A stretch of 17,227 bases of DNA, from the IMG/VR virus record IMGVR_UViG_2802429237_000005, positions 1 through 17,227 of that record; one strand, written 5' to 3'. The DNA is from a virus. Its lineage: Duplodnaviria; Heunggongvirae; Uroviricota; Caudoviricetes. The notes beneath the pieces are model-generated. The model was given only the letters and a program-made list of their open reading frames with translations. It was not told the DNA's origin and made no database searches. Positions 1,168 to 17,227 of the stretch are shown here, in pieces. Positions within the stretch are counted from its first letter, which is position 1; the number at the start of each line of letters is the position of its first letter. A program made the position numbers and the translations under genes.

Positions 1168-1169
1168 TG

Positions 1170-1775: not shown

Positions 1776-1787
1776 TCAGAGGGGCCG

Positions 1788-2231: not shown

Positions 2232-2265
2232 ATCCCCACCTTTAGGTAAGCGTGGGGATTTTTAT
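2232..2265 (+). terminator. rho-independent terminator after the lysis cassette
   Basis: Inverted repeat ATCCCCAC (2232-2239) / GTGGGGAT (2252-2259) with a 12-nt loop, followed by TTTTTA (2260-2265). Confidence 0.6.
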
Positions 2266-2272
2266 AGTCATT

Positions 2273-2310
2273 CAATTTTTTCTCTAAATCACATTAAAAG
2301 ATTCTTCACC
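2273..2310 (+). promoter_or_regulatory. candidate activator-dependent promoter motif upstream of the tail-core genes
   Basis: CAAT-N7-CTAAATC-N4-TAAAAG block (2273-2300) repeated with identical spacing at 10832-10859, followed by ATTCTTCAC (2301-2309), which recurs at 824-832 upstream of the holin. Confidence 0.3.
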
Positions 2311-2372
2311 TTCACTGCTTCAGAATACATTTCAACGATAACGAAGTGAGCGGTAATTAAGGTACACCTCAT

Positions 2373-2828
2373 ATGAAAACTTTATCTGTAATGAATTATG
2401 TCGTGGTTAAATTACGTATTCGGCATCCTGAAATGGACATATTTATTTCATCTACGGACGCCCAAAAATATATTCCACAGACACAGCAAATTGCGGTGAT
2501 TATTAATTATAGCGGTTCTGTCTTTACCACGCCCGAAAGCAGTGATGCCATTGTGCAACAGCAAATACTCCGCTTAACCGCCACCGTTATTGTTGGCAAA
2601 AATTGTGACGCGTTAAACGCACTGGATCGCATACGCAGCACATTGGGTGGCCTTCAGCTTCCTGATTGCGATCGTCTTCTTTGGCTTGAAAAAGAAACTA
2701 ATACGGGTGAGAGCGGCGGTTTCTGCCGCTACATCCTGGAAATGGCGACCAGCTCGCTGTTTATCGCTGAACAGGAAAGCACGGATCTTCCCCTGCTTAC
2801 GGAAGTTAATTACGAGGAAACTGAATGA
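2373..2828 (+). CDS. hypothetical protein, 151 aa; placement suggests a tail completion/terminator-type protein
   Basis: Intact ORF, first gene after the terminator/promoter region, stop overlaps the next start (ATGA at 2825-2828). No motif I can assign with certainty; role inferred from its position before the sheath gene. Confidence 0.45.
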   Translation: MKTLSVMNYVVVKLRIRHPEMDIFISSTDAQKYIPQTQQIAVIINYSGSVFTTPESSDAIVQQQILRLTATVIVGKNCDALNALDRIRSTLGGLQLPDCDRLLWLEKETNTGESGGFCRYILEMATSSLFIAEQESTDLPLLTEVNYEETE

Positions 2829-3022
2829 AATACATCTACAACGGCCCGGCAAGCGGCGTCACCCTTGCCGACGGACAAGAAATCTTATTGTGGCCGAACA
2901 GTGAAATTGATCTGCCAGAAGACAACGAGTGGGTCATGACCATGATTGCCCGCAATCACCTGACTCCTGTCATCACTCAGGAAGAACAAAACAACGCAGA
3001 GGAAATTGTACATGGCAGCTAA
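2825..3022 (+). CDS. small conserved hypothetical protein, 65 aa, immediately upstream of the sheath gene
   Basis: Translationally coupled to flanking genes (ATGA overlap upstream, short overlap with the sheath start). Small acidic proteins in this position are common in Mu-like and P2-like tail clusters. Assignment by context. Confidence 0.45.
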   Translation: MKYIYNGPASGVTLADGQEILLWPNSEIDLPEDNEWVMTMIARNHLTPVITQEEQNNAEEIVHGS

Positions 3023-4436
3023 TTACCTGCACGGTGTAGAAACCATTGAAATTGAAACCGGCCCGCGTCCGGTTAAAGCGGTAAAATCCGCCGTCATCGC
3101 TTTAATCGGTACGGCCCCCTGTGGTCCGGTAAACAAACCAACATTATGCCTTTCTGAAAGCGATGCCGCGCAGTTTGGCGCAGGCATGGCTAACTTTACG
3201 ATCCCGCAAGCGCTGAAGGCAATTTATGACCACGGCGCCGGTACGGTGGTGGTGATTAACGTACTAGATCCGGCAAAACATGGCTCCAGCATCAGCAATG
3301 AGAGTATCACTTTTGATGCTAACAACCAGGCGAGACTCGCTCACCGCAATGTGCGTAACGTGGTACTAAAGCCCTCTTCATCAAATTCAACAACCTATAA
3401 CACCGCAGCATTTAGCGTAGATGAACAAACAGGCATAATTACCCGAAAAGGAGCCGACATTCCTCCTGGGGCAAAAGTTTGCGCCTATTATTCCTGGTGC
3501 GATCCTACAAAGGTTACCGCAGCCGATATTATCGGTGCCGTTAATACCGCAGGCGATCGCACGGGGATGAAACTGCTACAGGACACTTATAACCTGTATG
3601 GTTTCTACGCCAAAATCCTGCTTGCTCCCGTTTTCTGTACGCAAAAATCGGTGACTACTGAGCTAATTGCACAAGCGGAAAAACTCGGTGCTATCGCCTA
3701 CATTGACGCCCCAATCGGTACTACATTCCAGCAGGTGTTAGCTGGACGCGGTTCGCAAGGCGCAATCAACTTCAACACCAGCTCTGACCGTGCGCGTTTG
3801 TGCTATCCGCACGTCAAAGTTTATGACGGCGCAACCAACCAGGAAATTCTCGAACCGCTCTCTTCGCGCGCTGCCGGGCTGCGTGCCAAACTGGACGTGG
3901 AGAAAGGTTTCTGGTGGAGCAACTCAAACCAGGAAATTCAGGGTATTACCGGTATCGAACGTTCACTTTCCGCGATGATCGATGACCCGCAAAGTGAAGT
4001 GAATCAGCTCAACGAAAACGGCATTACCACTATTTTCAATAGTTACGGCTCTGGTCTGCGTTTATGGGGCAACCGCACTGCAGCATGGCCGACCGTGACC
4101 CATATGCGTAACTTTGAGAACGTTCGCCGCACGGGTGATGTGATTAACGAGTCGATCCGCTATTTCAGCCAACAGTATATTGATATGCCTATTAATCAGG
4201 CACTTATTGACGCGCTAACCGAATCGGTAAATACCTGGGGCCGAAAACTGATTGCCGACGGCGCACTGCTTGGCTTTGAGTGCTGGTACGATCCGGCGAG
4301 AAATTCACCGACTGAACTCAGCGCCGGGCATTTATTGCTGAGCTATAAATTCACCCCGCCGCCGCCGCTGGAACGTCTGACGTTTGAAACTGAAATTACT
4401 TCTGAATACTTAGTCTCTCTGGAGAGCAATAGCTAA
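3012..4436 (+). CDS. contractile tail sheath protein (P2 FI / Mu L-like)
   Basis: N-terminus MAANYLHGVETIEIETGPRPV and C-terminus CWYDPARNSPTELSAGHLLLSYKFTPPPPLERLTFETEI resemble recalled P2 FI sheath termini (xYHHGVQVLEI... and ...YIDYDYTPVPPLENLT...). ATG at 3012 preferred over the track's TTG at 3006; GAGGA lies upstream. Length of about 474 aa is typical. Confidence 0.9.
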   Translation: MAANYLHGVETIEIETGPRPVKAVKSAVIALIGTAPCGPVNKPTLCLSESDAAQFGAGMANFTIPQALKAIYDHGAGTVVVINVLDPAKHGSSISNESITFDANNQARLAHRNVRNVVLKPSSSNSTTYNTAAFSVDEQTGIITRKGADIPPGAKVCAYYSWCDPTKVTAADIIGAVNTAGDRTGMKLLQDTYNLYGFYAKILLAPVFCTQKSVTTELIAQAEKLGAIAYIDAPIGTTFQQVLAGRGSQGAINFNTSSDRARLCYPHVKVYDGATNQEILEPLSSRAAGLRAKLDVEKGFWWSNSNQEIQGITGIERSLSAMIDDPQSEVNQLNENGITTIFNSYGSGLRLWGNRTAAWPTVTHMRNFENVRRTGDVINESIRYFSQQYIDMPINQALIDALTESVNTWGRKLIADGALLGFECWYDPARNSPTELSAGHLLLSYKFTPPPPLERLTFETEITSEYLVSLESNS

Positions 4437-4960
4437 TGGCTGGAAAAATTCAAATTAATCGTATTACCAATGCCAATATTTATCTCGATGGTAATAACCT
4501 TTTAGGTCGTGCAACCGAAATTAAATTGCCGGATGTCAGTTTAATTATGCAAGAGCATAAGGCACTGGGCATGGTGGGTAAAATCGAACTCCCGGCTGGT
4601 TTCGATAAACTGGAGGGGGAAATTAAATGGAACTCCTTTTATCATGACGTCATGCGTAAAACGGCAAATCCGTGGCAGGCGGTAGCATTACAGTGCCGCT
4701 CCAGCATTGATTGCTATAACTCCCAGGGGAAAGCGAATCAATTAGCATTAGTGACACATTTAACCGTGATGTTTAAAAAGAATCCACTGGGCACATTTAA
4801 ACAGAATGAAAACCCGGAATTCAGCAGCGCCTTTGGCTGCACTTATATTAAACAAGTAGTCGATGGCGAAACACTGCTGGAACTGGATTACCTGGCGAAT
4901 ATTTTCCGCGTTAACGGCGTGGATCAATTAAGTACCTATCGCAATAACATCGGTGGTTAA
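4436..4960 (+). CDS. tail tube protein (P2 FII-like)
   Basis: ATG overlaps the sheath stop (TAATG). C-terminal motif VNGVDQLSTYRNNIGG matches the conserved end of P2-type tube proteins (recalled VNGVDRLEQHRRNIGL). Size 174 aa. Confidence 0.9.
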   Translation: MAGKIQINRITNANIYLDGNNLLGRATEIKLPDVSLIMQEHKALGMVGKIELPAGFDKLEGEIKWNSFYHDVMRKTANPWQAVALQCRSSIDCYNSQGKANQLALVTHLTVMFKKNPLGTFKQNENPEFSSAFGCTYIKQVVDGETLLELDYLANIFRVNGVDQLSTYRNNIGG

Positions 4961-4964
4961 GTTA

Positions 4965-4984
4965 TTCGGGGCTACCGCCCCGAA
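4965..4984 (+). other. GC-rich stem-loop after the tube gene (mRNA stabiliser or attenuator candidate)
   Basis: Perfect inverted repeat TTCGGGGC (4965-4972) / GCCCCGAA (4977-4984) with loop TACC. No downstream U-tract, so not a classical terminator. Confidence 0.4.
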
Positions 4985-5010
4985 CTTCGCAAAATAAATA
5001 AGGATACAAA

Positions 5011-5328
5011 ATGACAGAACACTATATCTTACAGTTTCCGTTTACTTCAGCGGCGGGAGACGTAATTAACACTCTGCAATTACGTCGCCTGAAAGTAAAA
5101 GATATGCGCAACGCACGCCGAATCAGCGAAAAGCCAGAAGAATGGGATGAACCGCTGATGGCGGCGATGACCGGACTGGTGCCGGAAGATTTAGCTGAAA
5201 TGGATTTGCTGGATTACCAGGCGTTGCAGAAACGATTTCAATCCATGCTTAGCGTGGCTACAGAATCCTCCCTTGCTATGGCAGGCAATGGCGCTACTGG
5301 CGAGATGGTTTCGCTTTCCGCCCAGTGA
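5011..5328 (+). CDS. tail assembly chaperone (P2 gpE-like position)
   Basis: 105-aa acidic ORF between tube and tape-measure genes, AAGGAT Shine-Dalgarno at 5000-5005. Followed by a 188-nt gap in which the +1 frame stays open to 5416, the expected arrangement for a frameshift-extended chaperone. Confidence 0.75.
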   Translation: MTEHYILQFPFTSAAGDVINTLQLRRLKVKDMRNARRISEKPEEWDEPLMAAMTGLVPEDLAEMDLLDYQALQKRFQSMLSVATESSLAMAGNGATGEMVSLSAQ

Positions 5329-5402
5329 GATCGACGCGCTCACAATAGATGACTTTAGCAACTGGCTGGATGAAGCCAGCGCTCAAATAAAGATCGAATA
5401 TG

Positions 5403-5433
5403 ACTCGCAGACCTGATGTCTGCGAGTTCTTTA
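5403..5433 (+). terminator. hairpin with T-rich tail between chaperone and tape-measure genes (attenuator/terminator candidate)
   Basis: ACTCGCAGAC (5403-5412) / GTCTGCGAGT (5418-5427) form a 10-bp perfect stem with loop CTGAT, followed by TCTTTA. The stop codon of the +1-frame extension (TGA 5414-5416) lies in the loop. Confidence 0.4.
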
Positions 5434-5516
5434 AAGCCCGCCAGGTTTATTTCTTCCCTGCCCATTTTTCAGAAAACTAACCAGCGGGCCATCACCAATC
5501 TATAAGAGAAACAATT

Positions 5517-7892
5517 TTGGCCAACGATATTATTACCCTGCTTCAGACGCGTAATGAGACGTTGACGCAGGCAATAGCCCGTTACGGCTCACTCAACGCC
5601 AGAACATTGTTAGCTCTCTCTTCTCAGCAAGCGACAGTAATCAAACTAACGCAGCAACTTGCCGATTCTGCTCTCCGCCTGGAGGAAAATAGCCGGAACC
5701 GCGCTGATCTGATGGAGAAAACCCAAACATTTGCCGGGCAATTTAACAAGGTATTCAATGTTGAAGCCCCTGACTGGAAGTTGCCGTATGAGTTTCAGGA
5801 CAACATGGTCAATATAGCGACCAAAGGTGGGATGAATGATACAACCAGCGTGACGCTCAGCCTTAACCTGCGCGACTGGAGCATGGATTTTAACCAGCAG
5901 CAGACCACATTACAGAACGCAGCCCAAACGCTGATCGAAGGCAATTTGTCGTCGTTGCAGGATCTCAACCGTTATATGCCGGAGATCGCCAAAGCTGCCA
6001 CCGCCACACGCGAAAGTGCTGAAACATGGGCGAATGCCGCGCTCACAACTCATGATCGCCTGAATATTGCGCCAGAAAATTTCCACGCCGCGCAAAACAT
6101 GATGTACGACATTAGCAAAAGCGGTGGGCCTGCCGTTGCCGAGCAAACGCAGTGGATAGACAAATTTGCAGGTAAAACGGGTGCGCAAGGTTTAGAAGGT
6201 ATGGCTGAACTGACCGCCACAATGCAGATCGCCATGAAAAACGGTGCCAGCGCCAGTGCGGCGGCGGAGAATTTCGACCACTTTCTGCAAACCACCTTTT
6301 CGAAAAAAACCGATAACTGGTTCGCCAGCCAGGGCGTCGATCTGCAAGGCTCTCTGCTTGAACATCAGCAAAACGGCATGGGTGTTAGCGAAGCCATGAC
6401 TCATATCGTGCAAATGCAGCTTGAGAAGATGAATCCGGCGATCCTCGGCACCTTCAAACGCACCATGCAGATTGAGGATTTATCTGCTCGCGGCAATGCA
6501 CTGCAATCGATGGTGACGCAATTTAATCTGGGTGAAATGTTCGGCGATGCACAAACTGTGGAATTCCTGGCTCCTATGTTGGCGAATATGGAAGAGTATC
6601 GCCAGTTAAAAACTTCCGCCATGCAAGCCAGCAGCAAGAATCTGATTGACTCCGACTTTTCTGCGCAGATGGCCTCGCCTATTGAACAGACTAAAGCGTT
6701 ACAGCTGGCGTTAAATGATTTATGGCTCAGCATTGGCTTGCAATTAATGCCGCTGATTGGCGAGCTGGCGCAAAGCCTTACGCCAGTGATTCGCCAGTTC
6801 AGCGCCTGGATACGTGAACACCCGGCGCTGGTGCAAAACATTGCGAAAATCGTCGGGGCGATTTGGCTGTTTAACGGCGCACTGAATGTTTTAAAGCTGG
6901 GCGCGAACTTCATCGCCTCGCCGTTTATTCGTCTGGTCGATATCTTCCTGAAAGTCAGGGCAAGTCTGGCGCTCACAGGCGCAGCGAGTAAGGTACTATC
7001 GGCGGTTAAGTCATTGGGTGGCGGCGCAAAATGGCTATCGCTACTGCTTGGTCGTGGCCTAATCGGAGCATTGAAACTGGTTGGTTTAACCGTTCTCTCG
7101 CTAGGCCGGGTGTTATTGATGAATCCCATTGGTCTGGTCATCACTGCGATTGCGGGCGCCGCTTATCTGATTTATCGCAACTGGGAGCCTATCTCAAGGT
7201 TCTTTTCGACCATCTGGCAACGTATCACCACGGCCTTTGACGGTGGCATTGCAGGAATTTGCCGGTTGATTCTCGACTGGTCGCCGCTGGAGTTGTTCTA
7301 TAGCGCCTTTTCCAGTGTGATGAATTGGTTTGGCGTTGAGATGCCAGCGAGTTTTAGCGAGTTCGGCAGCAATCTTCTGGGCAGTCTGGTTGACGGCATA
7401 ATGAATGCCTTCCCCGCTCTGAAAGGCATTATTGATCAGGTCAAAAACGTCTTACCGGACTGGCTAAAAACCACGATGGGTATTAGCACAGAAGGATCGG
7501 CTACGGCTGTTACAAGCACGACGAATACCGCATCCGTCTCCCCCGCAACCGTTGTTCCAGGCGTTGCCGGTGCAATTTTAACACCTCTGGTGGGCAAACA
7601 ACTCGCGCCCCCCAGCAAAACGACAACGCCGCCATCGGCACCAGCGGCAAAAAATACAGCCACCAACCCCGCATCGGCTTCTTTACCTGGTAAATCCGTA
7701 ACCAAACCGGCGACGCTACCTTCCCGTTCCTCAGGAAAAGTTCAGGTGAATTTTTCGCCACAAATTACCGTGCAGGGTAACGGACAAAACACCACTAAAG
7801 ACATTCAGAACGTGTTGACGATGAGTAAACGCGAACTGGAAAGAATGATTAACGACGTAATGGCGCAACAACAGCGCCGGGGGTATGCCTGA
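5517..7892 (+). CDS. tail tape measure protein
   Basis: 791-aa ORF directly after the chaperone, the longest gene in the cluster. Internal hydrophobic segment (LIGALKLVGLTVLSLGRVLLMNPIGLVITAIAGAAYLIY) and Thr/Pro/Ala/Ser-rich C-terminal region. TTG start at 5517 is the first start codon after an in-frame stop at 5478-5480; the start is uncertain. Confidence 0.85.
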   Translation: MANDIITLLQTRNETLTQAIARYGSLNARTLLALSSQQATVIKLTQQLADSALRLEENSRNRADLMEKTQTFAGQFNKVFNVEAPDWKLPYEFQDNMVNIATKGGMNDTTSVTLSLNLRDWSMDFNQQQTTLQNAAQTLIEGNLSSLQDLNRYMPEIAKAATATRESAETWANAALTTHDRLNIAPENFHAAQNMMYDISKSGGPAVAEQTQWIDKFAGKTGAQGLEGMAELTATMQIAMKNGASASAAAENFDHFLQTTFSKKTDNWFASQGVDLQGSLLEHQQNGMGVSEAMTHIVQMQLEKMNPAILGTFKRTMQIEDLSARGNALQSMVTQFNLGEMFGDAQTVEFLAPMLANMEEYRQLKTSAMQASSKNLIDSDFSAQMASPIEQTKALQLALNDLWLSIGLQLMPLIGELAQSLTPVIRQFSAWIREHPALVQNIAKIVGAIWLFNGALNVLKLGANFIASPFIRLVDIFLKVRASLALTGAASKVLSAVKSLGGGAKWLSLLLGRGLIGALKLVGLTVLSLGRVLLMNPIGLVITAIAGAAYLIYRNWEPISRFFSTIWQRITTAFDGGIAGICRLILDWSPLELFYSAFSSVMNWFGVEMPASFSEFGSNLLGSLVDGIMNAFPALKGIIDQVKNVLPDWLKTTMGISTEGSATAVTSTTNTASVSPATVVPGVAGAILTPLVGKQLAPPSKTTTPPSAPAAKNTATNPASASLPGKSVTKPATLPSRSSGKVQVNFSPQITVQGNGQNTTKDIQNVLTMSKRELERMINDVMAQQQRRGYA

Positions 7893-8845
7893 TGTATGCC
7901 GTTTTAGGAGAGATTGAATTTAAGGTTGTCACATTCTGGGACGGCTTTAAAAGCACAATGGGCGTGGATTACGCCACTCATGCCCGTATAGAGGGCAAAC
8001 CCGGCGTGCAGTTTATTGGCGATAAGCTGGATATGCTGGCGCTGGAATTTTCTCTGCACAGCCAGTTTTGCCAGCCCACAACAGAGCTGAATCGACTGCG
8101 TGAAGCCATGCTTGCGCACAAAGCGATGGCACTGGTATTTGGCAATGGCGATTATCGCGGCTGGTTTGTGATTACAGAGTTAACCGCCACCCACCAGCAC
8201 ACCGATCCCTGGGGCAATGTGATTGCCCAAAGCGGAACGATGTCGCTCCAGGAGTACACTGGCGCTCCTAAAAATCCACTCTTACCCCCGGCGATTACCG
8301 CCCAGGAGCCCAACATCGAGGAAAAGGCGAGCGATTTTCCAGACATGGTGGAGTCCTGGTTTGATCAGATATTAAACGCCATTGAAGAAGGTATGCGTAA
8401 GGCTAAAGAGATGCTGGATGAACTGACTCAAGCCATTGAAGATATTAAAAAAACAGTGGCAAAGGTCAAAGCACTAATTAAAGAGGCCAAAGCGTTAAAA
8501 GAAAAGTGTGAAAAGATAATTACGTCGTTGAAAAAAACAATCGACGCCATCGAAACCCTGTTTAAACAACCAATAGATCTGCAAACGCTGGCAGGACTCC
8601 CAAAAGCGTTGTCGGCGCAGATTAAAGCTTTACTGGGTAACATGCCAGGTATCCGGGACTGCGCCAATGACGCCAGTACGCTGGTTGACCATGCTCAGGC
8701 GCTTTTCGACGACATTACCAGCGACATCGCCGAAGCGACGTTTGATAAAGCCGCAGCGTTGGTTGATCAGGCACGAACAACGGTACAACAAACCACTCCA
8801 GCAGTGAGCCAGCTTGCTGCCGCGACCATTACGAGGAGCTGGTGA
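7892..8845 (+). CDS. P2 gpU-like tail protein with a ~190-aa C-terminal helical extension
   Basis: ATG overlaps the tape-measure stop (TGATG). The N-terminal ~125 aa (MYAVLGEIEFKVV...GWFVITELT) resemble recalled P2 gpU (MMVLGLFVF...GMFVI). The C-terminal half is Lys/Glu/Ala-rich with heptad-like periodicity (KAKEMLDELTQAIEDIKKTVAKVKALIKEAKALKEK). Confidence 0.7.
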   Translation: MYAVLGEIEFKVVTFWDGFKSTMGVDYATHARIEGKPGVQFIGDKLDMLALEFSLHSQFCQPTTELNRLREAMLAHKAMALVFGNGDYRGWFVITELTATHQHTDPWGNVIAQSGTMSLQEYTGAPKNPLLPPAITAQEPNIEEKASDFPDMVESWFDQILNAIEEGMRKAKEMLDELTQAIEDIKKTVAKVKALIKEAKALKEKCEKIITSLKKTIDAIETLFKQPIDLQTLAGLPKALSAQIKALLGNMPGIRDCANDASTLVDHAQALFDDITSDIAEATFDKAAALVDQARTTVQQTTPAVSQLAAATITRSW

Positions 8846-9054
8846 TGCGATACCTTGAACATATCACCACCGACGGCGAACGCTGGGATAATCTGGCATG
8901 GCATTACTACGGCGATGCGCTGGCTTATGAACGTATTATCGCCGCCAATCCACATGTCGCCATTTACCCGGTACTGCCTTCCGGTATTCAGCTCATTATT
9001 CCGGTCATTTCCGTCAACAAAACCTTATCGGAGATCCCACCATGGCTGAGATAA
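8845..9054 (+). CDS. tail protein X (P2 gpX-like)
   Basis: 69-aa protein with a ...WHYYGD...IIAANP... pattern resembling recalled P2 gpX (...RYYGR...VLAANP...). GAGGAG Shine-Dalgarno at 8833-8838. ATG at 8845 preferred over GTG at 8842. Confidence 0.8.
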   Translation: MRYLEHITTDGERWDNLAWHYYGDALAYERIIAANPHVAIYPVLPSGIQLIIPVISVNKTLSEIPPWLR

Positions 9055-10082
9055 GCGTATCTGGTGGCGTCTTTGCCACGCTTGCGCCCATTTTTACCCT
9101 CTGGTATGGGCATAAAGATATCACTTATGACATCACGCCCTATGTCACCAGCATCAGTTACCACGACAGCATCAAAAACGAGTCGGATACCATCGCGATT
9201 ACCCTGGATGATACCGATGGACGCTGGATAAAAGAGTGGTATCCCGGCAAAGGCGATACGCTGGCGCTGCATATGGGTTATCAGGGGGAGAAGCTTCTCG
9301 ATTGCGGTCAGTATATTATTGATAAAATTGATATTTCAGCGCCACCTTCCACGGTAAATATTGATGGCATCGCCACTTCCGTCAATCAGGCGCTGCGCAC
9401 CCGTAACAGCCAGGGTTTTGAAGAAACGACGCTTTCGGCTATTGCCAGCCGTATCGCGCAAACTCACGGTCTGAAGCTGGTGGGCAAAATCGAACCGCTG
9501 ACGATTGACCGGGTGACACAGTATGGCGAAACCGATGTCGGATTTCTCAAGCGTCTGGCCAGTGAATATGGCTATGCCGTAAAAGTGACGACAAAAGAGC
9601 TTATTTTTTCACATCTGCCGACGTTACGCTGCCTGGCGCCAGTGAAAAGCATCGACCGCAAAGAGGTTTCCCACTTCACCTTCAAAGACACCATTAATCG
9701 CATCTACAAGAACGCCACCGTACAACATCAAAACAGTAAGAAAAAAGAGTTGGTTATCTACACACATGACAGCCAGCAAAAACCGTCCGCCCGTGGAGCA
9801 GGCACCAGTGCCGACACGTTAAAACTCAATAGCCGGGCGCCGGACGTTGGCGCGGCACAGGCAAAGGCCAACGCTGCACTCAACAGCCACAACGAATATC
9901 AGCAAACCGGAACGCTAAAGATGATGGGCTGCCCGGAACTGACGGCAGGCAATAAAATCGAGCTAACCGATTTTGGTGTGCTTTCCGGTCAGTGGCTGAT
10001 TGATAAATCTACTCACAGTTTTGTGCGCAGCGGCTATACCACTGAAATCGACGTTTCGCGCGGGCCAGCGACCAGCCAGTAA
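9042..10082 (+). CDS. baseplate hub / late control gene D protein (P2 gpD-like)
   Basis: 346-aa ORF with patterns matching recalled gpD: GDTLALHMGY, TTLSAIASRIAQTHGLKL, GETDVGFLKRLASEYGYAV. Position directly after gpX. Confidence 0.85.
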   Translation: MAEISVSGGVFATLAPIFTLWYGHKDITYDITPYVTSISYHDSIKNESDTIAITLDDTDGRWIKEWYPGKGDTLALHMGYQGEKLLDCGQYIIDKIDISAPPSTVNIDGIATSVNQALRTRNSQGFEETTLSAIASRIAQTHGLKLVGKIEPLTIDRVTQYGETDVGFLKRLASEYGYAVKVTTKELIFSHLPTLRCLAPVKSIDRKEVSHFTFKDTINRIYKNATVQHQNSKKKELVIYTHDSQQKPSARGAGTSADTLKLNSRAPDVGAAQAKANAALNSHNEYQQTGTLKMMGCPELTAGNKIELTDFGVLSGQWLIDKSTHSFVRSGYTTEIDVSRGPATSQ

Positions 10083-10091
10083 GGAGGCAAT

Positions 10092-10793
10092 ATGAAAGGA
10101 GTAACCCGGCAAACGGGGATTATCAGCGATATTGACGAAACCAGCGTTCGGGTGCGGGTCACGCTGCCAGAGTGTGACAATCTGAAGAGCAACTGGCTTG
10201 CGGTACTTCAACGCAATTCCCAGGACAATAAAGACTACTGGCTACCGGATATGGGCGAGCAAGTGGAAGTTCTGCTGGACGATAACGGTGAAGATGGCGT
10301 GGTGCTGGGCGCAGTTTATTCTACGGTTGACACCGCGCCAGTGGCCTCGCGCGACAAACGTTACGTCCAGTTTTCTGATGGCGCAGCGTTTGAATATGAC
10401 CGCAGCACCCACCAACTTACGATTAACGGCGGTATCGAGAAAATCGTGATTGAGGTTATCGACAGTACCCGCCTGACATCGCCCAACATTGAGATTAAAG
10501 CCCAACAGGTCAGCGTGACTTCCGATACCGTCGATGTTAAAGCGACCGATGTCAACATCGACGCCACTGAGGTCAATGTTAAAGCGGCAGCAGTGACGGT
10601 AGATGCGCCCATAAGTACCTTTACTGGTAACGTCACGGTAATGAAAAAACTCACCTGGCTTGGCGGGATGGCAGGAAGTGGAGGCATCGGTAACGCCGCC
10701 ACGATAACCGGCAATGTCAACGTGATCGGCAACGTTCAGGCCAGCGGCACATTGCAGGACAGCGGAGGCAACTCAAACCACCATTCACACTAA
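10092..10793 (+). CDS. baseplate central spike (P2 gpV-like)
   Basis: AAGGAGG Shine-Dalgarno before the ATG. N-terminal OB-fold-like region, repetitive V/T/D-rich beta-helical segment (VTSDTVDVKATDVNIDATEVNVKAAAVTVDA) and C-terminal His cluster NSNHHSH, consistent with the metal-binding apex of P2-type spikes. Confidence 0.85.
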   Translation: MKGVTRQTGIISDIDETSVRVRVTLPECDNLKSNWLAVLQRNSQDNKDYWLPDMGEQVEVLLDDNGEDGVVLGAVYSTVDTAPVASRDKRYVQFSDGAAFEYDRSTHQLTINGGIEKIVIEVIDSTRLTSPNIEIKAQQVSVTSDTVDVKATDVNIDATEVNVKAAAVTVDAPISTFTGNVTVMKKLTWLGGMAGSGGIGNAATITGNVNVIGNVQASGTLQDSGGNSNHHSH

Positions 10794-10799
10794 CTTTTA

Positions 10800-10828
10800 A
10801 CCCGCCTGATGGCGGGTTTTCTCTTTTT
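10800..10828 (+). terminator. rho-independent terminator between spike and baseplate-wedge genes
   Basis: ACCCGCC (10800-10806) / GGCGGGT (10811-10817) with loop TGAT, followed by TTTCTCTTTTT. Confidence 0.65.
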
Positions 10829-10831
10829 AAT

Positions 10832-10859
10832 CAATCAGTTTTCTAAATCGCTTTAATAT
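10832..10859 (+). promoter_or_regulatory. candidate activator-dependent promoter motif upstream of gpW
   Basis: CAAT-N7-CTAAATC-N4-TAATAT with the same internal spacing as the block at 2273-2300. Lies between the terminator and the gpW start codon. Confidence 0.3.
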
Positions 10860-10891
10860 CGCCACTGCCCGTTCAGGGCGAAAATACCCTC

Positions 10892-11251
10892 ATGAACACA
10901 AAAACAAGACCCTCAACGCTGCACTGGCAACCAGCCTTGCAGCGGCCTGAAGAATACGTCTGCGGGCAGGATGATATTCACCAGGCAATACACATCATTC
11001 TGCGTACACCGCGCGGCAGTGATCCCCACAGACCGCTGTTTGGCAGCAACTTGTGGCACTACATCGATTACCCCATCGAGCGGGCAATCCCGCATGTGGT
11101 ACGGGAGTCGGTGGAAGCCATCCGCCAGTGGGAACCGCGATGCCGGTTGCTGAAGGTGACACCAGTAATCGACGGTGAACATCTGACGTTACGTGTGCAA
11201 TGGCGCGCCGCTGACGGTGTTATCAACTCAACGGAGGTGTTATGGCGATAG
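10892..11251 (+). CDS. baseplate wedge protein (P2 gpW / GPW_gp25 family)
   Basis: 119 aa. Pattern DDIHQAIHIILRTPRGSDPHRPLFGSNLW...AIRQWEPR matches the gpW/gp25 family (recalled P2 W: ...IGDILRTPVGSRVMRRDYGS...VLKWEPR). Confidence 0.85.
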   Translation: MNTKTRPSTLHWQPALQRPEEYVCGQDDIHQAIHIILRTPRGSDPHRPLFGSNLWHYIDYPIERAIPHVVRESVEAIRQWEPRCRLLKVTPVIDGEHLTLRVQWRAADGVINSTEVLWR

Positions 11252-12357
11252 CCGAACCCAATTTTATTGACCGCGATCCTGCGCAAATTACCAGTGAGAT
11301 GATTGCGCAATACGAAGATGCCAGCGGTAAAAAACTCTACCCGGCACAGGCCGAGCGGTTGCTTATCGACCTGTTTGCCTATCGTGAAAACCTTGTACGC
11401 ATCGCCATTCAGGAAGCGGCGAAACAAAACCTGGTCGCGTATTCCCGCGCGCCAATGCTGGATTATTTAGGTGAACTGGTGGGCGTTCACCGTTTACCTG
11501 CACAACCGGCAAAAACGACGTTGCAGTTTTCGGTCGTCAGTACATATGCCAGCAATATCCTGATTCCCCAGGGGACGCGGGCCAGTGCCTCTGATAGCGT
11601 GATGTTCGCCACCGATGAAGATGTTCTGCTTCCGGCGGGAAGTTTGCATATCGCCGTTCCTGCCACCAGCCTCGCAACAGGTGAACAGGGTAACGGCTGG
11701 CAGCCTGCACAAATTAGCGCACTTGTCGACAGGATTGGTCATTATGACATCAACGTAACCAACCTGACTGCGTCAACGGGCGGCTGCGGTGAGGAGAGCG
11801 ATGAGGCATTGCGCCAGCGTATCCAACTGGCACCAGAAAGCTTCAGCAATGCAGGCAGCTATGGCGCATACCGCTTTCATACGCTTTCTGTTAGCCAGTC
11901 GATTATTGACGTTGCAGTACTGGGACCAGATGAGGGGTTGCCAGAAGGCTGCGTGGAGATCTACCCGCTAACGCTGAATGGCCTGCCGGGCGTGGAACTG
12001 CTCGTGCAAATCGAACAGGAAGTTAGCAAGGAGAAAAAACGTCCGCTGACCGACAAAGTGAGTGCGAAATGCGCTCTTCGAGTACCGTATGAGATCCGTG
12101 CGCAGCTAACGCTGTTTACCACCGCCGATCAGGAGACAACGCTGGCTGCGGCGCGTAAAGCGATTAGCCTCTGGACGCAACAGCGGCAGAAACATCTGGG
12201 ACAGGACATTGTGCCAAACCAGATAATCAAAGTGTTACAGGTCAATGGCGTCTATGACGTTGTGCTGAACTTGCCTACAAAACGCATTTTGCAGGCACAT
12301 GAGTGGGCGGAATGCACCGCAATAGACGTCACGATTGCCGGAGTCAGCGATGGATAA
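11242..12357 (+). CDS. baseplate protein J (P2 gpJ-like)
   Basis: 371 aa, GGAGG Shine-Dalgarno before the ATG, 10-nt overlap with gpW. Conserved position and size; N-terminal region resembles the baseplate J family. Confidence 0.85.
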   Translation: MAIAEPNFIDRDPAQITSEMIAQYEDASGKKLYPAQAERLLIDLFAYRENLVRIAIQEAAKQNLVAYSRAPMLDYLGELVGVHRLPAQPAKTTLQFSVVSTYASNILIPQGTRASASDSVMFATDEDVLLPAGSLHIAVPATSLATGEQGNGWQPAQISALVDRIGHYDINVTNLTASTGGCGEESDEALRQRIQLAPESFSNAGSYGAYRFHTLSVSQSIIDVAVLGPDEGLPEGCVEIYPLTLNGLPGVELLVQIEQEVSKEKKRPLTDKVSAKCALRVPYEIRAQLTLFTTADQETTLAAARKAISLWTQQRQKHLGQDIVPNQIIKVLQVNGVYDVVLNLPTKRILQAHEWAECTAIDVTIAGVSDG

Positions 12358-12982
12358 ATTGCTGCCGCCACCGCCGCTTGCCAGCGATGAGCGTTTTTCG
12401 ATTCTGGCAAATATCGCCGCCGAGCGTTTTGCCCAACTCGATCTGACGGCGTTGATGGTTTATCTGGTCGACCTGGTTGATGCTTCGGCTTTGCCTACGC
12501 TTGCAGAACAATTTCACGTTCAGGGGCTGGAAGGTTGGTTATTTACCACCGATGAGCGGGAGAAGCGCGAGTTAATTAAGCAAGCCATTGAGCTGCATAA
12601 ATATAAAGGAACAATTTGGGCGGTACGGCAGGTACTGGAAATACTCTCGCTACCCGGAACTATTTCCGAATGGTTTGAATATGGCGGGAAGGCTTATTTT
12701 TTTAAGGTTGATATAGAGCTGGTGGATAAAGGCATGGATGAAAACCTTTTCAATAATCTGGTAGAACTCATTCATGAATATAAAAACACACGTTCAAAAC
12801 TGGAAGCATTAATTGTCTGGATCATTAACCAAAGTGCTATTCCTGTTATTGGTTGTGCACTTTATGGTGGTGAACTGACGACGGTTTTACCTTTCCAGAT
12901 AAGGGAAGTACAGCAAAACACATCAATTTATTACGGAACAGGGCAATGGAGCCTTGAAATTACATCTATTTACCCGGAGTGA
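12350..12982 (+). CDS. baseplate/tail protein I (P2 gpI-like)
   Basis: ATG at 12350 with GGAG at 12340-12343 preferred over the track's TTG at 12335. Motif HKYKGTIWAVRQVLE resembles recalled P2 gpI (HCHKGTIGAIRRVVE). Confidence 0.8.
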   Translation: MDKLLPPPPLASDERFSILANIAAERFAQLDLTALMVYLVDLVDASALPTLAEQFHVQGLEGWLFTTDEREKRELIKQAIELHKYKGTIWAVRQVLEILSLPGTISEWFEYGGKAYFFKVDIELVDKGMDENLFNNLVELIHEYKNTRSKLEALIVWIINQSAIPVIGCALYGGELTTVLPFQIREVQQNTSIYYGTGQWSLEITSIYPE

Positions 12983-12984
12983 TT

Positions 12985-14466
12985 ATGGATAATGAGTTTT
13001 ATACTCTGCTCACCAGCAGGGGGATGGCAAAAATTGCCAATGCCCTTGCAAATAAAAAACAGCTTCATCTACAAAAGATGGCCATTGGAGACGGCGGTGG
13101 GCAATATTATGAACCCACCGTCAGCCAAACTAAATTACGTCACGAAGTATGGCGTGGCGATTTAAATACATTAACCGTTGCGCCCAATAATCCTAACTGG
13201 TTAATTGCGGAACTTGTACTGCCCGAAAATATCGGTGGCTGGTATGTACGTGAAGTCGGTGTTTTTGATACTGACGGTGAACTCATTGCTATCGGTAAAT
13301 TCCCTGAGTCGTATAAACCGCTATTACCCGGCGGCAGCGGTAAGCAAGTTTGCATTCGTCTTATTATGGAAGTTTCCAATACGGCAGCGGTAACACTCAC
13401 CGTTGACCCCAGTATTGTGCTGGCAACGCGCGATTACGTCGATTCGCAACTGGATGAACATGAACGTTCAACTAATCATCCTGATGCTACGTTATCGCAA
13501 AAAGGCTTTACGCAGTTGAGTAACTCCACTGACAGCGATGACGAAACCAAAGCGGCTACGCCCAAAGCGGTGAAAGCAGCGATGATTGAAGCTCGAAATC
13601 ATCGTCATACCTGGAGTCAGATTACTGATATTCCGGATGGCACGCTGGCGCAAAAAGGGATCGTGAAGCTTAATAACGCGACCAATAGTACCAGCACGAC
13701 AGAGGCGGCGACACCGAGCGCGGTCAAGGCGGCGTATGACCTGGCGAATGGTAAGGCTGCGGGAAACCATACTCACCCATGGGGGCAGATTACGGGTGTT
13801 CCAGACGGCACCCTGTCGCAAAAAGGGATTGTGACGCTTAATAACGCGACGGATAGCACCAGTACGACTGAGGCGGCGACGCCTAGTGCGGTGAAGGCGG
13901 CGTATGACTTGGCGAATGGTAAGGCTGCGGGTAGTCATACGCACCCCTGGGGGCAGATTACCAATATTCCCGACGCAACTCTTGGTAAGAAAGGAATTGT
14001 TCAGCTAAGCAGTACCGTCCCTAATACCAGTACAACAGAAGCAGCAACGCCATACTCAGTTAAGGTTGCCTATGACCTTGCGAACACTAAAGCTCCGGCA
14101 AGCCATACTCATCCATGGAATCAAATTACTGGTATCCCGGACGGTACGCTGACGCAAAAAGGGATTGTGAAGCTTAATAACACAACAAACAGCACCAGTA
14201 CAACAGAGGCGGCGACACCCAGTGCGGTGAAGGCTGCGATGGACAAAGCAAATACAGCTTTGAATAACACCACTGCATCTATATCAGATGTCAGACTGGG
14301 TGCTAAATTTGATCAGGTTATGGCAAAAGGGGGGCGCTATGAATTTCCTGGTAATGTTCTGACTGGGTTGAGAATTATCGGAGAAGTGGATGGAGATGAT
14401 CTCGCTATATTTCGCCCACTTCAGATAAAGGTTAGAGGTTCTTGGTATACGGTAGGACAACTTTAA
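12985..14466 (+). CDS. tail fiber protein (P2 gpH-like N-terminal domain, tandem-repeat shaft, conserved C-terminal domain)
   Basis: ATG at 12985 with GGAG upstream (track start is GTG at 12979). N-terminal region (...MAIGDGGG...HEVWRGDLN...IAELVLPENIGGWYVREVGVFD...YKPLLPGGSGKQ...) matches the P2 H-type fiber N-terminus. Five tandem repeats of the ATPKAVKAAxDLAN type. C-terminus GLRIIGEVDGDD...FRP. Confidence 0.9.
   Translation: MDNEFYTLLTSRGMAKIANALANKKQLHLQKMAIGDGGGQYYEPTVSQTKLRHEVWRGDLNTLTVAPNNPNWLIAELVLPENIGGWYVREVGVFDTDGELIAIGKFPESYKPLLPGGSGKQVCIRLIMEVSNTAAVTLTVDPSIVLATRDYVDSQLDEHERSTNHPDATLSQKGFTQLSNSTDSDDETKAATPKAVKAAMIEARNHRHTWSQITDIPDGTLAQKGIVKLNNATNSTSTTEAATPSAVKAAYDLANGKAAGNHTHPWGQITGVPDGTLSQKGIVTLNNATDSTSTTEAATPSAVKAAYDLANGKAAGSHTHPWGQITNIPDATLGKKGIVQLSSTVPNTSTTEAATPYSVKVAYDLANTKAPASHTHPWNQITGIPDGTLTQKGIVKLNNTTNSTSTTEAATPSAVKAAMDKANTALNNTTASISDVRLGAKFDQVMAKGGRYEFPGNVLTGLRIIGEVDGDDLAIFRPLQIKVRGSWYTVGQL
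13477..14247 (+). repeat. five in-frame tandem repeats (153-168 nt; 51-56 aa) in the tail fiber shaft
   Basis: The unit TL(S/A/T)QKGIVxLNNxTxSTSTTEAATPSAVKAAYDLANGKAAGxHTHPWxQITxIPDG recurs five times; the nucleotide period measured between CAAAAAGGGAT copies is 153, 168, 168, 168 nt. Confidence 0.85.
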
Positions 14467-15119
14467 TGGAATATAAAAATTTCACACTCTATAAACCGGC
14501 AGAAAGTATTGGTGGTATTTTTTATCTAAAATCTGATGACGATGTTGATTGGTACGAGGCACAAAAAAAATTTTCTGCCGAAACGTTAAAAATTGCTTAT
14601 GACAGCACAGGTAGAATTTGCATTGCGGATACTGATGCATCAGCGATTTGGCCAATAAATTCATCTATCAGTGAGATCTCATCTGAGAATGTTCCTGATG
14701 ATTTTTCAACAAATGGGAAATGGTTCTGGAATGGCGAAACGATAATCAATGCTGTAACAATCGTAACTGCTAAAAAAAATAAAATGGAGGATATCAAAAA
14801 TCGACGAGATGAAATAACGGCAGACTACATCATCATCAACGACCATCACTTCCACAGTGATACCAGCAGCCGAATCCAACAGATCTCGCTCACTAAAATG
14901 GGTAAGGAGAAACAAATTCCGCCAGGTTTAATGTGGAAAACTAAAAATAACGGTCTGATTGAGTTAACCAACGAAATCGCCGCGCAGTTTGAATCCGTCA
15001 CCATGGATCACGATATGCGCTTATTCGCCAACGCCCAACGTCATATCGCGGCGGTGGAAGCTCTGGACGATATTCAGGCGGTGCTCGATTACGATTACTC
15101 CACAGGCTGGCAACCATGA
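14466..15119 (+). CDS. tail fiber assembly protein (P2 gpG-like chaperone)
   Basis: ATG at 14466 overlaps the fiber stop (TAATG); the track start at 14442 lies inside the fiber gene. Pattern DWYEAQKKFSAETLKIAYDSTGRICI resembles recalled P2 gpG ([26 protein letters not shown]). AT-rich N-terminal part is typical of exchangeable fiber/chaperone cassettes. Confidence 0.8.
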   Translation: MEYKNFTLYKPAESIGGIFYLKSDDDVDWYEAQKKFSAETLKIAYDSTGRICIADTDASAIWPINSSISEISSENVPDDFSTNGKWFWNGETIINAVTIVTAKKNKMEDIKNRRDEITADYIIINDHHFHSDTSSRIQQISLTKMGKEKQIPPGLMWKTKNNGLIELTNEIAAQFESVTMDHDMRLFANAQRHIAAVEALDDIQAVLDYDYSTGWQP

Positions 15120-15571
15120 GTAAAACCACTGTCTGGCTCGCTTGTTATAAGGGCCGAACAGAGCACCGCGGTATTGCCCGACTGGCTGACTGGCTTACCC
15201 GTAAGATCACACGCGGTAGTTATTCCCACTGTGAATTAGCCGTTAAGCATGGTGAAAAGAGTTACCTTTGTTACTCCGCATCCCTACGCGATCGCGGCGT
15301 ACGCGGAAAGATAATGCCATTACCGCCAGATAAGTGGGATATGCTGCCACTTAACTCCAGCCTTCAGGACGTTGAAGCTTTTTTCCATAAACATGATGGC
15401 AAAAAATATGACTGGCGCGGCGCGCTTGGAATTATCACCGGCAATAAAGAACAGCGCGATCGCCTGTTTTGCAGTGAATTTTGTGCTGAATTCCTGCAAT
15501 TAAAAGATAGTTGGCGATACTCACCAAATCACCTGTATGCCTTAGTAAGTAACTGGCAATCCCATCCGTAA
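15116..15571 (+). CDS. hypothetical 151-aa protein, last gene of the tail operon; tentative permuted papain-fold (NlpC/P60 / LRAT / YiiX-like) signature
   Basis: ATGA start/stop overlap with the assembly-protein gene implies translational coupling. N-terminal His motif (TEHRGIA) and C-terminal Cys motif (LFCSEFCAEF) about 100 residues apart, an order and spacing reminiscent of LRAT/YiiX-type enzymes. The fold assignment is a motif-level guess. Confidence 0.6.
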   Translation: MSKTTVWLACYKGRTEHRGIARLADWLTRKITRGSYSHCELAVKHGEKSYLCYSASLRDRGVRGKIMPLPPDKWDMLPLNSSLQDVEAFFHKHDGKKYDWRGALGIITGNKEQRDRLFCSEFCAEFLQLKDSWRYSPNHLYALVSNWQSHP

Positions 15572-15576
15572 ATAAC

Positions 15577-15601
15577 ACCGGGCACAGTGCCCGGTTCCTT
15601 A
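15577..15601 (+). terminator. stem-loop/terminator at the end of the tail operon
   Basis: Perfect palindrome ACCGGGCAC-A-GTGCCCGGT (15577-15595) followed by TCCTTATAT. Downstream sequence turns AT-rich and lacks long ORFs. Confidence 0.5.
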
Positions 15602-16084
15602 TATACTCTAAATAGCTTATATAGACACATCCCCGATGCAAGCACGGTCAGACAGAGAAAATGGCCTCAGTGCCTTACCCCAAAAGGGCTGACCGAAAGT
15701 GGAACACTATTCCGCGAGGCTATTTAGAATCAGGCTATAAGGCATTCATAAAAAATATCATTCCACACAAAACATTTGCATAGAGAATAAAAAGCGATTT
15801 TTAAACATAAATATATTGCGTTATAAATCACTTCAAATATAGTTTGTCCTTTTGGCGCCCTCATAGACGATGCGAGGAAACAGCATGTTTACTGCCTCAC
15901 TCCTCTGGAAAAGTAAGGTTATCACTAATAAAAATGAGTCAGATAACACGTTACTGTCTGCACGCCACAAAGATAGAGGCTTAAGTAGGGCAACATTCAT
16001 ACATACACTATGCACATACGCTGATTCCTCATTTGCTTATAAAAACTCAATAAAGCAAGGTAACAATAAAAAGGATAATTCATC

Positions 16085-17227
16085 ATGGTTGATAAAATAA
16101 TTTTCACTGTTACGCCAATTTTTTCCATTCCTCCACGTTGCGCTGCTGCTGTAGAAACCTGGATTTATCAGGTTGCTATGATGACAAGAATACCGAATAG
16201 AATTGTTTGTATAAAAGAAGAAGGTTATTCTGATACCACCACTGTCAGTGAACGATGCTCAATTCATCGCATCGGATTCAGTCGAATTTATAAACGCATA
16301 TTTCAGAAATTGACGCGTATAGATCCCCTACCTTACTCTCAACGAATTTTGAATGTCGCTAACGATTTCAATATTACGGATAACAGTGTAATCATTGTAC
16401 ATAATAGCATGAAGTTATATCGTCAGATTCATGAGCGTTCACCTCAGGCAAAAATAGTAATGCATATGCATAACGCTTATGAGCCAAAAGGAATGGATGC
16501 CGATGTCAAAATGATCGTCCCCAGCAACTATTTAAAAAACTATTATCAGGGGTTCCTTCCTGATGCAGACATCGCTATAGTTCCAAATGGCACAGATCCA
16601 TATAATACAGATAAGCACCATGCCAAAATCAACAGATCTGATCTGAACATATCCCCTGACAAGAAGATTATATTTTATGCGGGAAGAATATCTCCTGAAA
16701 AAGGGTTGATGTTACTTCTGCAAGCGTTTGAACTACTCATCAGAACCCATGATGATATAGAACTGGTTGTTATCGGAGATTATGCGAGCAAAAGTAAGGG
16801 TGAAAAAGGAATTTACCAACAGAAAATTCGAGAATTAGCAAAACAACTAGGTTCACACTGCCATATGTTAGGAGGTGTCGCTCCTGAGGAAATGTATCGC
16901 TATTATTCTCTGGCTGATTTAGTTGTTATTCCATCTCAATTTCAGGAGCCATTTTGTATGGTGGCAATAGAAGCGATGAGTGCAGGTAAACCTGTACTGG
17001 TGAGTACTCGAGGTGGAATGATAGAATTTGTAAAAGATAAAGATACCGGCTATCACCTGCAAGAGCCGATGACACCCGAAACAATTGCTGTAGATATAGA
17101 AAAAACACTTAACAATTCTGATTTACTTAGTGTTGCCCATCACGGAAAACAATTTGTCATGGAAAATTATTTATGGTGGCAAGTCACTCACAAGTTTGAA
17201 ACTGTAATTAGCAATTGGTTTGATTGA
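16085..17227 (+). CDS. GT4-family (GT-B fold, retaining) glycosyltransferase
   Basis: 380-aa ORF with AAGGA Shine-Dalgarno upstream. C-terminal domain motifs typical of GT4 enzymes: GRISPEKG, VIPSQFQEPFCMVAIEAMSAGKPVLVS with the E-x7-E signature (EPFCMVAIE). Markedly AT-rich codon usage compared with the tail genes (by eye). Confidence 0.85.
   Translation: MVDKIIFTVTPIFSIPPRCAAAVETWIYQVAMMTRIPNRIVCIKEEGYSDTTTVSERCSIHRIGFSRIYKRIFQKLTRIDPLPYSQRILNVANDFNITDNSVIIVHNSMKLYRQIHERSPQAKIVMHMHNAYEPKGMDADVKMIVPSNYLKNYYQGFLPDADIAIVPNGTDPYNTDKHHAKINRSDLNISPDKKIIFYAGRISPEKGLMLLLQAFELLIRTHDDIELVVIGDYASKSKGEKGIYQQKIRELAKQLGSHCHMLGGVAPEEMYRYYSLADLVVIPSQFQEPFCMVAIEAMSAGKPVLVSTRGGMIEFVKDKDTGYHLQEPMTPETIAVDIEKTLNNSDLLSVAHHGKQFVMENYLWWQVTHKFETVISNWFD

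Follow-up and report, generated by a model that had tools for sequence, protein, structure and literature searches.

The permuted NlpC/P60 enzymes are papain-like proteins in which the catalytic His comes before the catalytic Cys. A thioester acyl-enzyme mechanism is established for two of them, LRAT and PLAAT. The characterized permuted members (LRAT/PLAAT, TseH, Tox-Act1, and RID) act on fatty-acyl ester or amide bonds (PMC3142127, PMC12994826). YiiX of E. coli (PDB 2if6) and BcPPNE of B. cereus (PDB 3kw0) use a catalytic tetrad, Cys128/His49/Glu64/Tyr115 in YiiX and Cys154/His49/Glu64/Tyr127 in BcPPNE; YiiX was found with a bound fatty acid, and the natural substrates of both enzymes are merely proposed (PMC3142127). 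We analyzed a gene whose product resembles these enzymes and that closes a contractile-tail gene cluster in a stretch of 17,227 nucleotides, hereafter the window (positions 1 to 17,227 of IMG/VR virus record IMGVR_UViG_2802429237_000005). A first-pass annotation, made from the letters alone, had marked this 151-residue open reading frame (ORF), here called the enzyme gene, as cargo with a possible permuted papain-fold signature. We find that its product is a new family-level variant of the permuted NlpC/P60 superfamily, outside the YiiX/YaeF family PF05708 by curated threshold, and that the gene is the conserved last gene of a tail-fiber module, inherited with the constant C-terminal domain of a tail-fiber chaperone.

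The ORF is present and translates as described (MSKTTVWLACYKGRTEHRGIARLADW...FCSEFCAEF...SHP). AlphaFold2 models built from 46 sequences (pLDDT 79.5) and from 149 sequences (pLDDT 93.5, pTM 0.88) have the same topology: a five-strand sheet (residues 6-11, 38-44, 50-56, 61-67, and 74-79) plus helices. In both models, Cys119 is the first residue of helix 119-126, and this helix is predicted to pack on the sheet that bears the His, as in a papain-like core. The order is that of a circular permutation, with His38 preceding Cys119 by 81 residues and both invariant. A Foldseek search of the model against the PDB gave nothing significant; the weaker matches were all permuted NlpC/P60 enzymes (TseH, PLAAT4, RID, and PPPDE), and matches in BFVD (viral predicted structures) included phage proteins named 'permuted papain-like amidase, YaeF/YiiX, C92'. 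Searching the PDB with the family profile (hmmsearch) returned 3kw0 (E 1.2e-4) and 2if6 (E 0.27), both aligned through the segments Y-S-H, K-Y-D, D-G-G-V-R, and F-C-S-E, and hhalign against a YiiX alignment gave a probability of 90.9% (E 1.2e-6). A distant phage relative, MW202455 (26% identity), is named a permuted papain-like amidase in GenBank and scores 21.9 bits on PF05708 (Peptidase_C92), under the gathering threshold of 27 bits. We are thus highly confident that the protein has a permuted papain fold and is an active enzyme, and its alignments point to YiiX/YaeF-type enzymes as its nearest solved relatives. The first-pass annotation had proposed the fold from two motifs and had named structure prediction and profile searches as its checks; both find a papain-like alpha+beta fold and bear the proposal out.

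We then turned to the active site. Conservation was scored in 149 sequences, the window protein and 148 representatives that are mutually at most 50% identical. His38, Trp74, Tyr98, and Cys119 are invariant (149/149). Near-invariant positions are Glu40 (147/149), Ser37 (144/149), Ser56 (143/149), and Asp59 (137/149), as well as Gly61-Val62-Arg63 and Pro137. The F-C-S-E motif is family-wide, with F118 in 137, C119 in all, and S120 and E121 each in 141 of the 149. The two motifs noticed earlier both occur in the window protein (E16-H17-R-G-I20 and F118-C119-S-E-F122), and they fared differently. The His-then-Cys order and the candidate nucleophile Cys119 stood, whereas the E-H-x-G-I motif, which had been taken to supply the His, is not conserved: His17 sits in an insertion, 90 of the 149 sequences have a gap at that position, and none of the remaining representatives has His there. 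We therefore rejected His17 as the catalytic His; the conserved one is His38. Mutagenesis should target H38 and C119, not H17.

In the profile alignment, Cys119 corresponds to Cys128 of YiiX and Cys154 of BcPPNE, and His38 to His49 of both. Tyr98 aligns with Tyr115 of YiiX in a shared G-K-x-Y-D segment (GKPYDF in YiiX) and stands shortly before the Cys, as does the oxyanion-hole tyrosine that is the equivalent of papain Gln19. The Glu64 position of YiiX and BcPPNE aligns with residue 55, which is Ala in the window protein and Ser in most relatives. The next residue, Ser56, ends strand 50-56, the antiparallel partner of strand 38-44, and this register, read from the model's strand assignments rather than from coordinates, suggests that Ser56 faces His38. 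The position of Glu40 is occupied by Gly in YiiX and BcPPNE. In the mechanism that we propose, Cys119, at the N-terminus of its helix, would be the nucleophile and His38 the general base, Tyr98 would supply the oxyanion hole, and Ser56 (across the beta-hairpin) and/or Glu40 would orient His38 in place of the YiiX Glu64. A second feature of the alignment concerns the substrate. In BcPPNE, Ser48, His49, and Asp68 bind the amine of a lysine ligand in the S1' site (PMC3142127). The Ser-His pair and the D-G-V-R segment of this site are kept in the window protein, which suggests an N-acyl or amine-bearing partner.

The enzyme family is large. A word-indexed search returned 83 relatives, none with a Pfam domain, and an exhaustive profile search returned 4844 representatives of 50%-identity clusters at E <= 1e-3, with 296 of them at E <= 1e-30; among the 150 matches listed, all but 8 have at most 180 residues and cover the full profile. 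The dN/dS ratio of the enzyme gene against close orthologues is 0.06-0.09. Together with the 4844 representatives, this ratio rules out a pseudogene or chance ORF. The family is thus large and separate and, as far as its sequences tell, keeps an intact Cys/His/Tyr active site. Hydropathy analysis of the window protein revealed no signal peptide or membrane segment (the maximum Kyte-Doolittle mean over 19 residues is 0.04) and its pI is 9.4: at 17.6 kDa it is small, soluble, and basic. We rejected a secreted or periplasmic location.

The databases give this family a different identity. PHROG 1128 matches the enzyme (E 7e-59) under the label 'enoyl-CoA hydratase/carnithine racemase-like', and the same name stands in the GenBank records of phages SuMu, Pm86, and RP12 and of Pasteurellaceae genomes. 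If the label were right, the protein would be a metabolic enzyme of the crotonase type. We consider this almost certainly wrong: crotonases have about 250 residues or more, well over the 151 residues found here, no crotonase-family model in Pfam or NCBIfam matches, and the predicted fold is papain-like with no Pfam ECH signature. The SuMu record derives the name from similarity to HAPS_0909 of H. parasuis SH0165, which suggests that the name was copied between records. The PHROG 1128 profile has 381 positions, of which the enzyme proteins span just 16-173, so it may mix in longer proteins. The PHROG and GenBank name is a misannotation that leaves a large family with a wrong label and no Pfam or NCBIfam model, and the annotation of the family can now be corrected. 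Our literature searches, which included STM4198-4201 and permuted NlpC proteins in a prophage tail-fiber context, found no functional study of the family, and the AP1 receptor paper does not mention the enzyme protein.

Where does the gene belong? The ATGA overlap with the fiber-assembly gene that had been reported is real (chaperone stop TGA at 15117-15119, enzyme ATG at 15116-15118), and the enzyme gene is translationally coupled to the chaperone gene. The chaperone matches Pfam DUF4376 (E 1.7e-13, residues 102-209), Caudo_TAP weakly, and PHROG tail-fiber and assembly families. We collected 80 loci, one genome per species, from Enterobacteriaceae, Pasteurellaceae, Neisseriaceae, Moraxellaceae, and an alphaproteobacterial bin; with five annotated loci, this gave 81 loci with an upstream ORF. 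Of the 81 upstream ORFs, 75 share the strand of the enzyme gene, and 70 of these 75 end no more than 30 nt from the predicted enzyme start, usually overlapping it. DUF4376 was found in 38 of the 81 upstream ORFs, Caudo_TAP in 15, and PHROG tail family 2837 in 60. Downstream genes vary (a D12 methylase in 13 loci, a tail sheath in 7, RlaP in 5, and many others). The order of chaperone then enzyme also occurs in phages SuMu, Pm86, Mcat7 (Moraxella), AP1 (Acidovorax), and pAN (Pseudomonas) and in MW202455. A tblastn search with the DUF4376 domain of the window matched 15 phage records, each of which has the enzyme gene, in a test that favors close relatives; the gene is directly downstream in three of them (Mcat7, AP1, and MW202455) and, by tblastn coordinates, within a few tens of bases in the others. 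The chaperone-linked enzyme thus spans prophages, phages, and headless tail clusters of Enterobacteriaceae, Pasteurellaceae, Neisseriaceae, and Moraxellaceae.

The two halves of the chaperone behave differently. In locus pairs with an enzyme identity of at least 70%, the median identity is 0.86 for the chaperone C-domain and 0.21 for its N-domain, so recombination repeatedly breaks within the chaperone gene, and the C-domain stays with the enzyme. Globally, pairwise identities of the enzyme correlate weakly with those of either chaperone half (Spearman 0.12-0.13), and only the high-identity comparison is informative. The same break is visible in the window. Compared at the DNA level with five relatives, backbone similarity extends to the fiber N-terminus. 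There is no collinear similarity in about 14250-14770 (the fiber C-terminus and the N-half of the chaperone): the fiber C-terminus shows off-register repeat matches only, and the N-half of the chaperone shows no DNA similarity at all. Similarity resumes at 14768-14823, where DUF4376 starts, spans the enzyme gene, and stops at 15560-15594. The G+C content follows this pattern, with 35-40%, its lowest level, in 14400-14800 (the swapped piece), about 50% in DUF4376 and the enzyme gene, and 36-39% downstream. Positions 14250-14790 thus look like a swapped host-range cassette whose right edge lies inside the chaperone gene, at the start of DUF4376. Separately, the fiber gene contains internally repeated DNA at 13600-14250, with five Phage_fiber_2 repeats (Pfam).

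The cluster itself is reduced. From the left, the window encodes a Mor activator (on the minus strand), a holin, an SLT transglycosylase and a lipoprotein (together the lysis cassette, 865-2141), Gp37, sheath, tube, a chaperone, the tape measure, gpU/X/D/V/W/J/I homologues, the fiber, and the fiber chaperone, and then comes the enzyme gene. In E. coli, lysC and yjbD/rluF flank the copy of the cluster (locus L089, NZ_CP029747.1 4926000-4948000), in which head, terminase, replication, and integrase genes are missing; the right flank in the window's own genome is the same as in E. coli. Positions 1-15571 of the window are a headless, Mor-regulated contractile-tail cluster and look like a tailocin-type element. 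In one E. coli strain, 2016C-3878, the gene for the tape measure has become a pseudogene. The baseplate J gene of the cluster occurs in 195 of 5426 complete E. coli genomes and the enzyme gene in 196 (at least 80% identity), always in a single chromosomal copy and as an intact coding sequence among the matches listed.

In P2-like phages, the end of the late operon is a usual place for accessory genes, and the first-pass annotation had placed the enzyme gene in such a cargo slot. The gene could accordingly be an accessory moron, an enzyme that modifies envelope lipids or lipopolysaccharide (LPS) precursors from the cytoplasmic side, for host benefit or phage exclusion and apart from tail assembly. 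Its position at the late-operon end fits this idea, PHROG 1128 is filed as 'moron, auxiliary metabolic gene and host takeover', the neighboring genes in the window and in Salmonella encode envelope-modifying transferases, and the gene stands alone in jumbo phage RP12. However, in most loci the enzyme gene shares a start-stop overlap with the chaperone gene, no promoter-like site accompanies it, its G+C content and DNA similarity fit the backbone (the true variable cargo begins after the hairpin described below), it is retained nearly 1:1 with the cluster in E. coli, and it matches no PADLOC defense model; at E <= 0.01, no PADLOC defense family was found for the enzyme or for the neighboring proteins. 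We regard the moron explanation as quite unlikely. Since DNA similarity and G+C content match the backbone, retention in E. coli is near 1:1, and no promoter was found, the enzyme gene is very likely part of the conserved tail backbone and not cargo, and the earlier placement in an accessory slot falls.

A scan of 14300-16300 found no promoter-like site. With the ATGA overlap, this is consistent with the co-expression with the tail genes that had been claimed. A G+C-rich stem-loop begins 6 nt past the enzyme stop. A 61-nt segment around it folds with -16.7 kcal/mol (z = -3.2 versus shuffles), and the stem-loop is kept in the E. coli, Superficieibacter, and Salmonella copies, where an outer A-T pair of the window is replaced by a compensatory G-C pair. 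The T-tract is weak on the plus strand (TTCCTTAT) and better on the minus strand, and a terminator consensus scan flagged the hairpin on the minus strand only. Of the operon-terminal hairpin claimed before, the stem-loop is therefore real, and a terminator function is no more than plausible.

Beyond the hairpin lies AT-rich cargo (15600-16084 and 16085-17227). Downstream of the enzyme gene, the window carries a GT4 LPS GlcNAc-transferase gene, E. coli carries RlaP and a slipin, and Salmonella carries a hexapeptide acetyltransferase. The full-length GT4 glycosyltransferase matches NCBIfam NF012028, 'lipopolysaccharide N-acetylglucosaminyltransferase', with 673 bits (cut-off 618) and also matches Pfam GT4-conflict; its gene is inserted between the enzyme gene and RlaP in the genome from which the window comes. 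This downstream cargo may serve LPS-receptor modification or self-protection against the tail particle. Searches of Pfam, PHROGs, NCBIfam, and PADLOC found nothing for a 76-residue ORF (15870-16100) that lies just upstream of the GT4 gene and overlaps it; this ORF may be no gene. The coordinates of the enzyme gene and its surroundings are collected in the table.

Features of the enzyme gene and its immediate neighbors (window positions)
Feature	Position	Strand	Description
Enzyme gene	15116..15571	+	151 aa, permuted NlpC/P60 (YiiX-like)
Tail-fiber assembly (TFA, chaperone) gene	14466..15119	+	217 aa, ATG at 14466
His38 codon (Y-S-H-C-E)	15227..15229	+	proposed catalytic base; start of model strand 38-44
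Glu40 codon	15233..15235	+	family-specific near-invariant acid, two residues past His38
Ser56 codon	15281..15283	+	candidate His-orienting third residue, place of YiiX Glu64
Tyr98 codon (G-K-K-Y-D-W)	15407..15409	+	proposed oxyanion-hole tyrosine
Cys119 codon (F-C-S-E)	15470..15472	+	proposed nucleophile, first residue of helix 119-126
G+C-rich stem-loop ACCGGGC-ACAGT-GCCCGGT	15577-15595		ends conserved block; possibly a terminator

We next considered what the enzyme may do. By analogy with the characterized permuted relatives, a thioester acyl-enzyme would form on Cys119, with an ester or amide as the acyl source, and hydrolysis or transfer of the acyl group would follow; a fatty-acyl or N-acyl-amine linkage is the most likely target. 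On this analogy, we give acyl (lipid or N-acyl) chemistry an even chance. The enzyme would be made late, together with the chaperone, and its target would not vary with receptor specificity. It could then mature the fiber-chaperone complex, or it could ride on this complex and attack a constant lipid of the target-cell envelope (lipid A, a lipoprotein, or a phospholipid acyl bond). The translational coupling, the retention in a cluster pared down to tail, lysis, and regulator genes, and the linkage to the constant half of the chaperone suggest such a fiber- or particle-linked role, which we propose tentatively, as somewhat short of an even chance. A more specific version, in which the constant DUF4376-type domain of the chaperone recruits the enzyme, which stays on phage or tailocin fiber tips and, where these touch the cell, cleaves off or transfers an acyl chain from an outer-membrane lipid that does not vary, seems improbable.

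The amine-binding residues also allow a protein substrate. A peptidase or isopeptidase acting in the producer cell might free or trim a chaperone 'cap' from the fiber, or it might strip a ubiquitin-like or other defense conjugate off tail proteins. The deposited name of BcPPNE is 'cysteine peptidase', and its S1' site takes up an amino acid (PMC3142127), through the S-H and D-G-V-R residues that are conserved in the window protein; the enzyme gene is tightly coupled to chaperone genes; and DUF4376 chaperones were proposed to be transient fiber caps whose removal is unexplained (PMC10579305). On the contrary, the S1 pockets of the nearest characterized permuted members are hydrophobic, and the bonds on which these enzymes act are fatty-acyl ones (PMC3142127, PMC12994826); such chaperones also have no known cleavage site or processed form. 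The ubiquitin-like variant would follow the example of the Bil system. We regard a peptidase as unlikely.

A cytoplasmic protein that is made late might alternatively help the particle to leave: a phospholipase or acyl-hydrolase could weaken the membranes of the producer or destroy receptor-bearing debris, and so allow release without re-adsorption. The permuted relatives TseH and Tox-Act1 are membrane-disrupting phospholipases (PMC12994826), and the enzyme gene adjoins holin or lysin genes in AP1, pAN, and one further locus (L098). Yet in the window and its relatives the lysis cassette lies at the other end of the cluster, the conserved partner is the chaperone and not a lysis gene, and the inhibitor or immunity gene that would be expected for an unrestrained cytoplasmic phospholipase was not seen. 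This makes a role in exit very unlikely.

Taken together, these results favor a permuted enzyme encoded by a backbone gene with a fiber-linked acyl role, and we think this combined explanation somewhat likelier to be right than wrong. Several points weigh against it. Some concern the enzyme: the third catalytic residue differs from the Glu of YiiX, and the N-terminal G-D motif, stated to be conserved superfamily-wide at the start of beta-1 (PMC3142127) and present in YiiX homologues as T-G-D-I-I-F, is absent, strand 1 reading V-W-L-A-C-Y-K-G (family consensus L-A-F-Y-K-G). Neither Pfam nor NCBIfam has a model that matches the window protein, PF05708 does not match it even at E <= 10, and sub-threshold PF05708 matches occur in just 1 of 46 and 2 of 149 relatives (best E 1.6e-4). 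Other points concern the link with the fiber. The linkage with the C-domain of the chaperone could come simply from physical proximity, both lying on the side of a recombination hot spot that stays constant, and the chaperones encoded before the enzyme gene have C-terminal domains of at least two kinds. At tblastn E <= 1e-5, only 25 of 50,697 phage records match, with no classical model phage among the matches listed, which suggests that the enzyme is not generally needed for fiber assembly. One ORF joins DUF4376 and the enzyme (L047 7506-8528 in a Kingella sp. metagenome bin; 340 aa, DUF4376 34-150, enzyme 157-317), and none of the 120 best further hits to it is fused, so it is likely a frameshift or an assembly artefact. 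Divergent relatives (31-39% identity) occur elsewhere, in a P2-like slot between fiber and sheath, beside a GH108 lysin, and alone in RP12. This divergent group also includes members outside tail-fiber modules (loci L100 1778-7826 and L095 18-2919), in a portal/MuF interval and directly after a ribonucleotide reductase gene. Finally, the SuMu virion proteomics paper, the sole one found for a carrier phage, does not mention the enzyme. As an observation apart, the portal-side member sits between the portal gene and an 853-aa gene, with a MuF-like minor head gene next in line, as is typical for head-packaged proteins.

If the enzyme acts on the fiber-chaperone complex or on the target envelope, it would add an enzymatic step to host recognition or penetration, and retargeting of tailocins or phages by fiber and chaperone swaps would need the enzyme to be carried along. 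A particle-borne lipid-targeting enzyme, if true, would be a class so far undescribed for contractile tails. Even as no more than a lipid enzyme of the cytoplasm, the protein would represent a new and tractable branch of the permuted NlpC/P60 superfamily.

How does the enzyme compare with the described systems? It resembles YiiX and the YaeF family in the His-before-Cys order and in the Y-S-H, K-x-Y-D, and (F/Y)-C-S-E motifs, and its Cys/His/Tyr correspond to C128/H49/Y115 of YiiX (PMC3142127). It differs in being about 30-40 residues shorter and in having no signal peptide, which YiiX homologues have; Ser56 and/or Glu40 would take the place of Glu64. YiiX is a chromosomal periplasmic protein, whereas the enzyme is encoded in phage-tail modules. 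The score below the Pfam threshold and the lack of the G-D motif, of the triad Glu, and of a signal peptide set it apart from PF05708. BcPPNE is the best profile match and shares the Ser-His pair and D-G-V-R, yet its chain has 214 residues and its third residue is Glu64; the chemistry of the enzyme is drawn from it by analogy only.

TseH and Tox-Act1, permuted NlpC/P60 phospholipases of type VI secretion systems, are likewise tied to a contractile tail-like machine; they cleave phospholipids, and their His and Cys are essential (PMC12994826). The similarity of the enzyme to them is much weaker than to YiiX-type enzymes, and they act in the target periplasm with immunity proteins and delivery domains, none of which was seen for the enzyme. 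With LRAT/PLAAT (HRASLS) and the picornavirus 2A H-box/NC proteins it has in common a minimal permuted core of about 120-150 residues and His then Cys. However, it has F-C-S-E instead of N-C-E-H-F, no second catalytic His at the LRAT position, and no C-terminal membrane anchor. Thus, of the LRAT/YiiX-type resemblance proposed by the first-pass annotation, the YiiX side is upheld by the 3kw0 and hhalign matches and is clearly the closer one, whereas we rejected LRAT-type membership for want of N-C-E-H-F and the anchor. Lambda gpK and tail-associated lysins are NlpC/P60 papain-like Cys/His enzymes that are also encoded in phage tail modules. Proteins of the gpK type are canonical Cys-before-His peptidoglycan peptidases and structural parts of the tail tip; the enzyme described here is permuted, and its gene is placed after the fiber chaperone gene.

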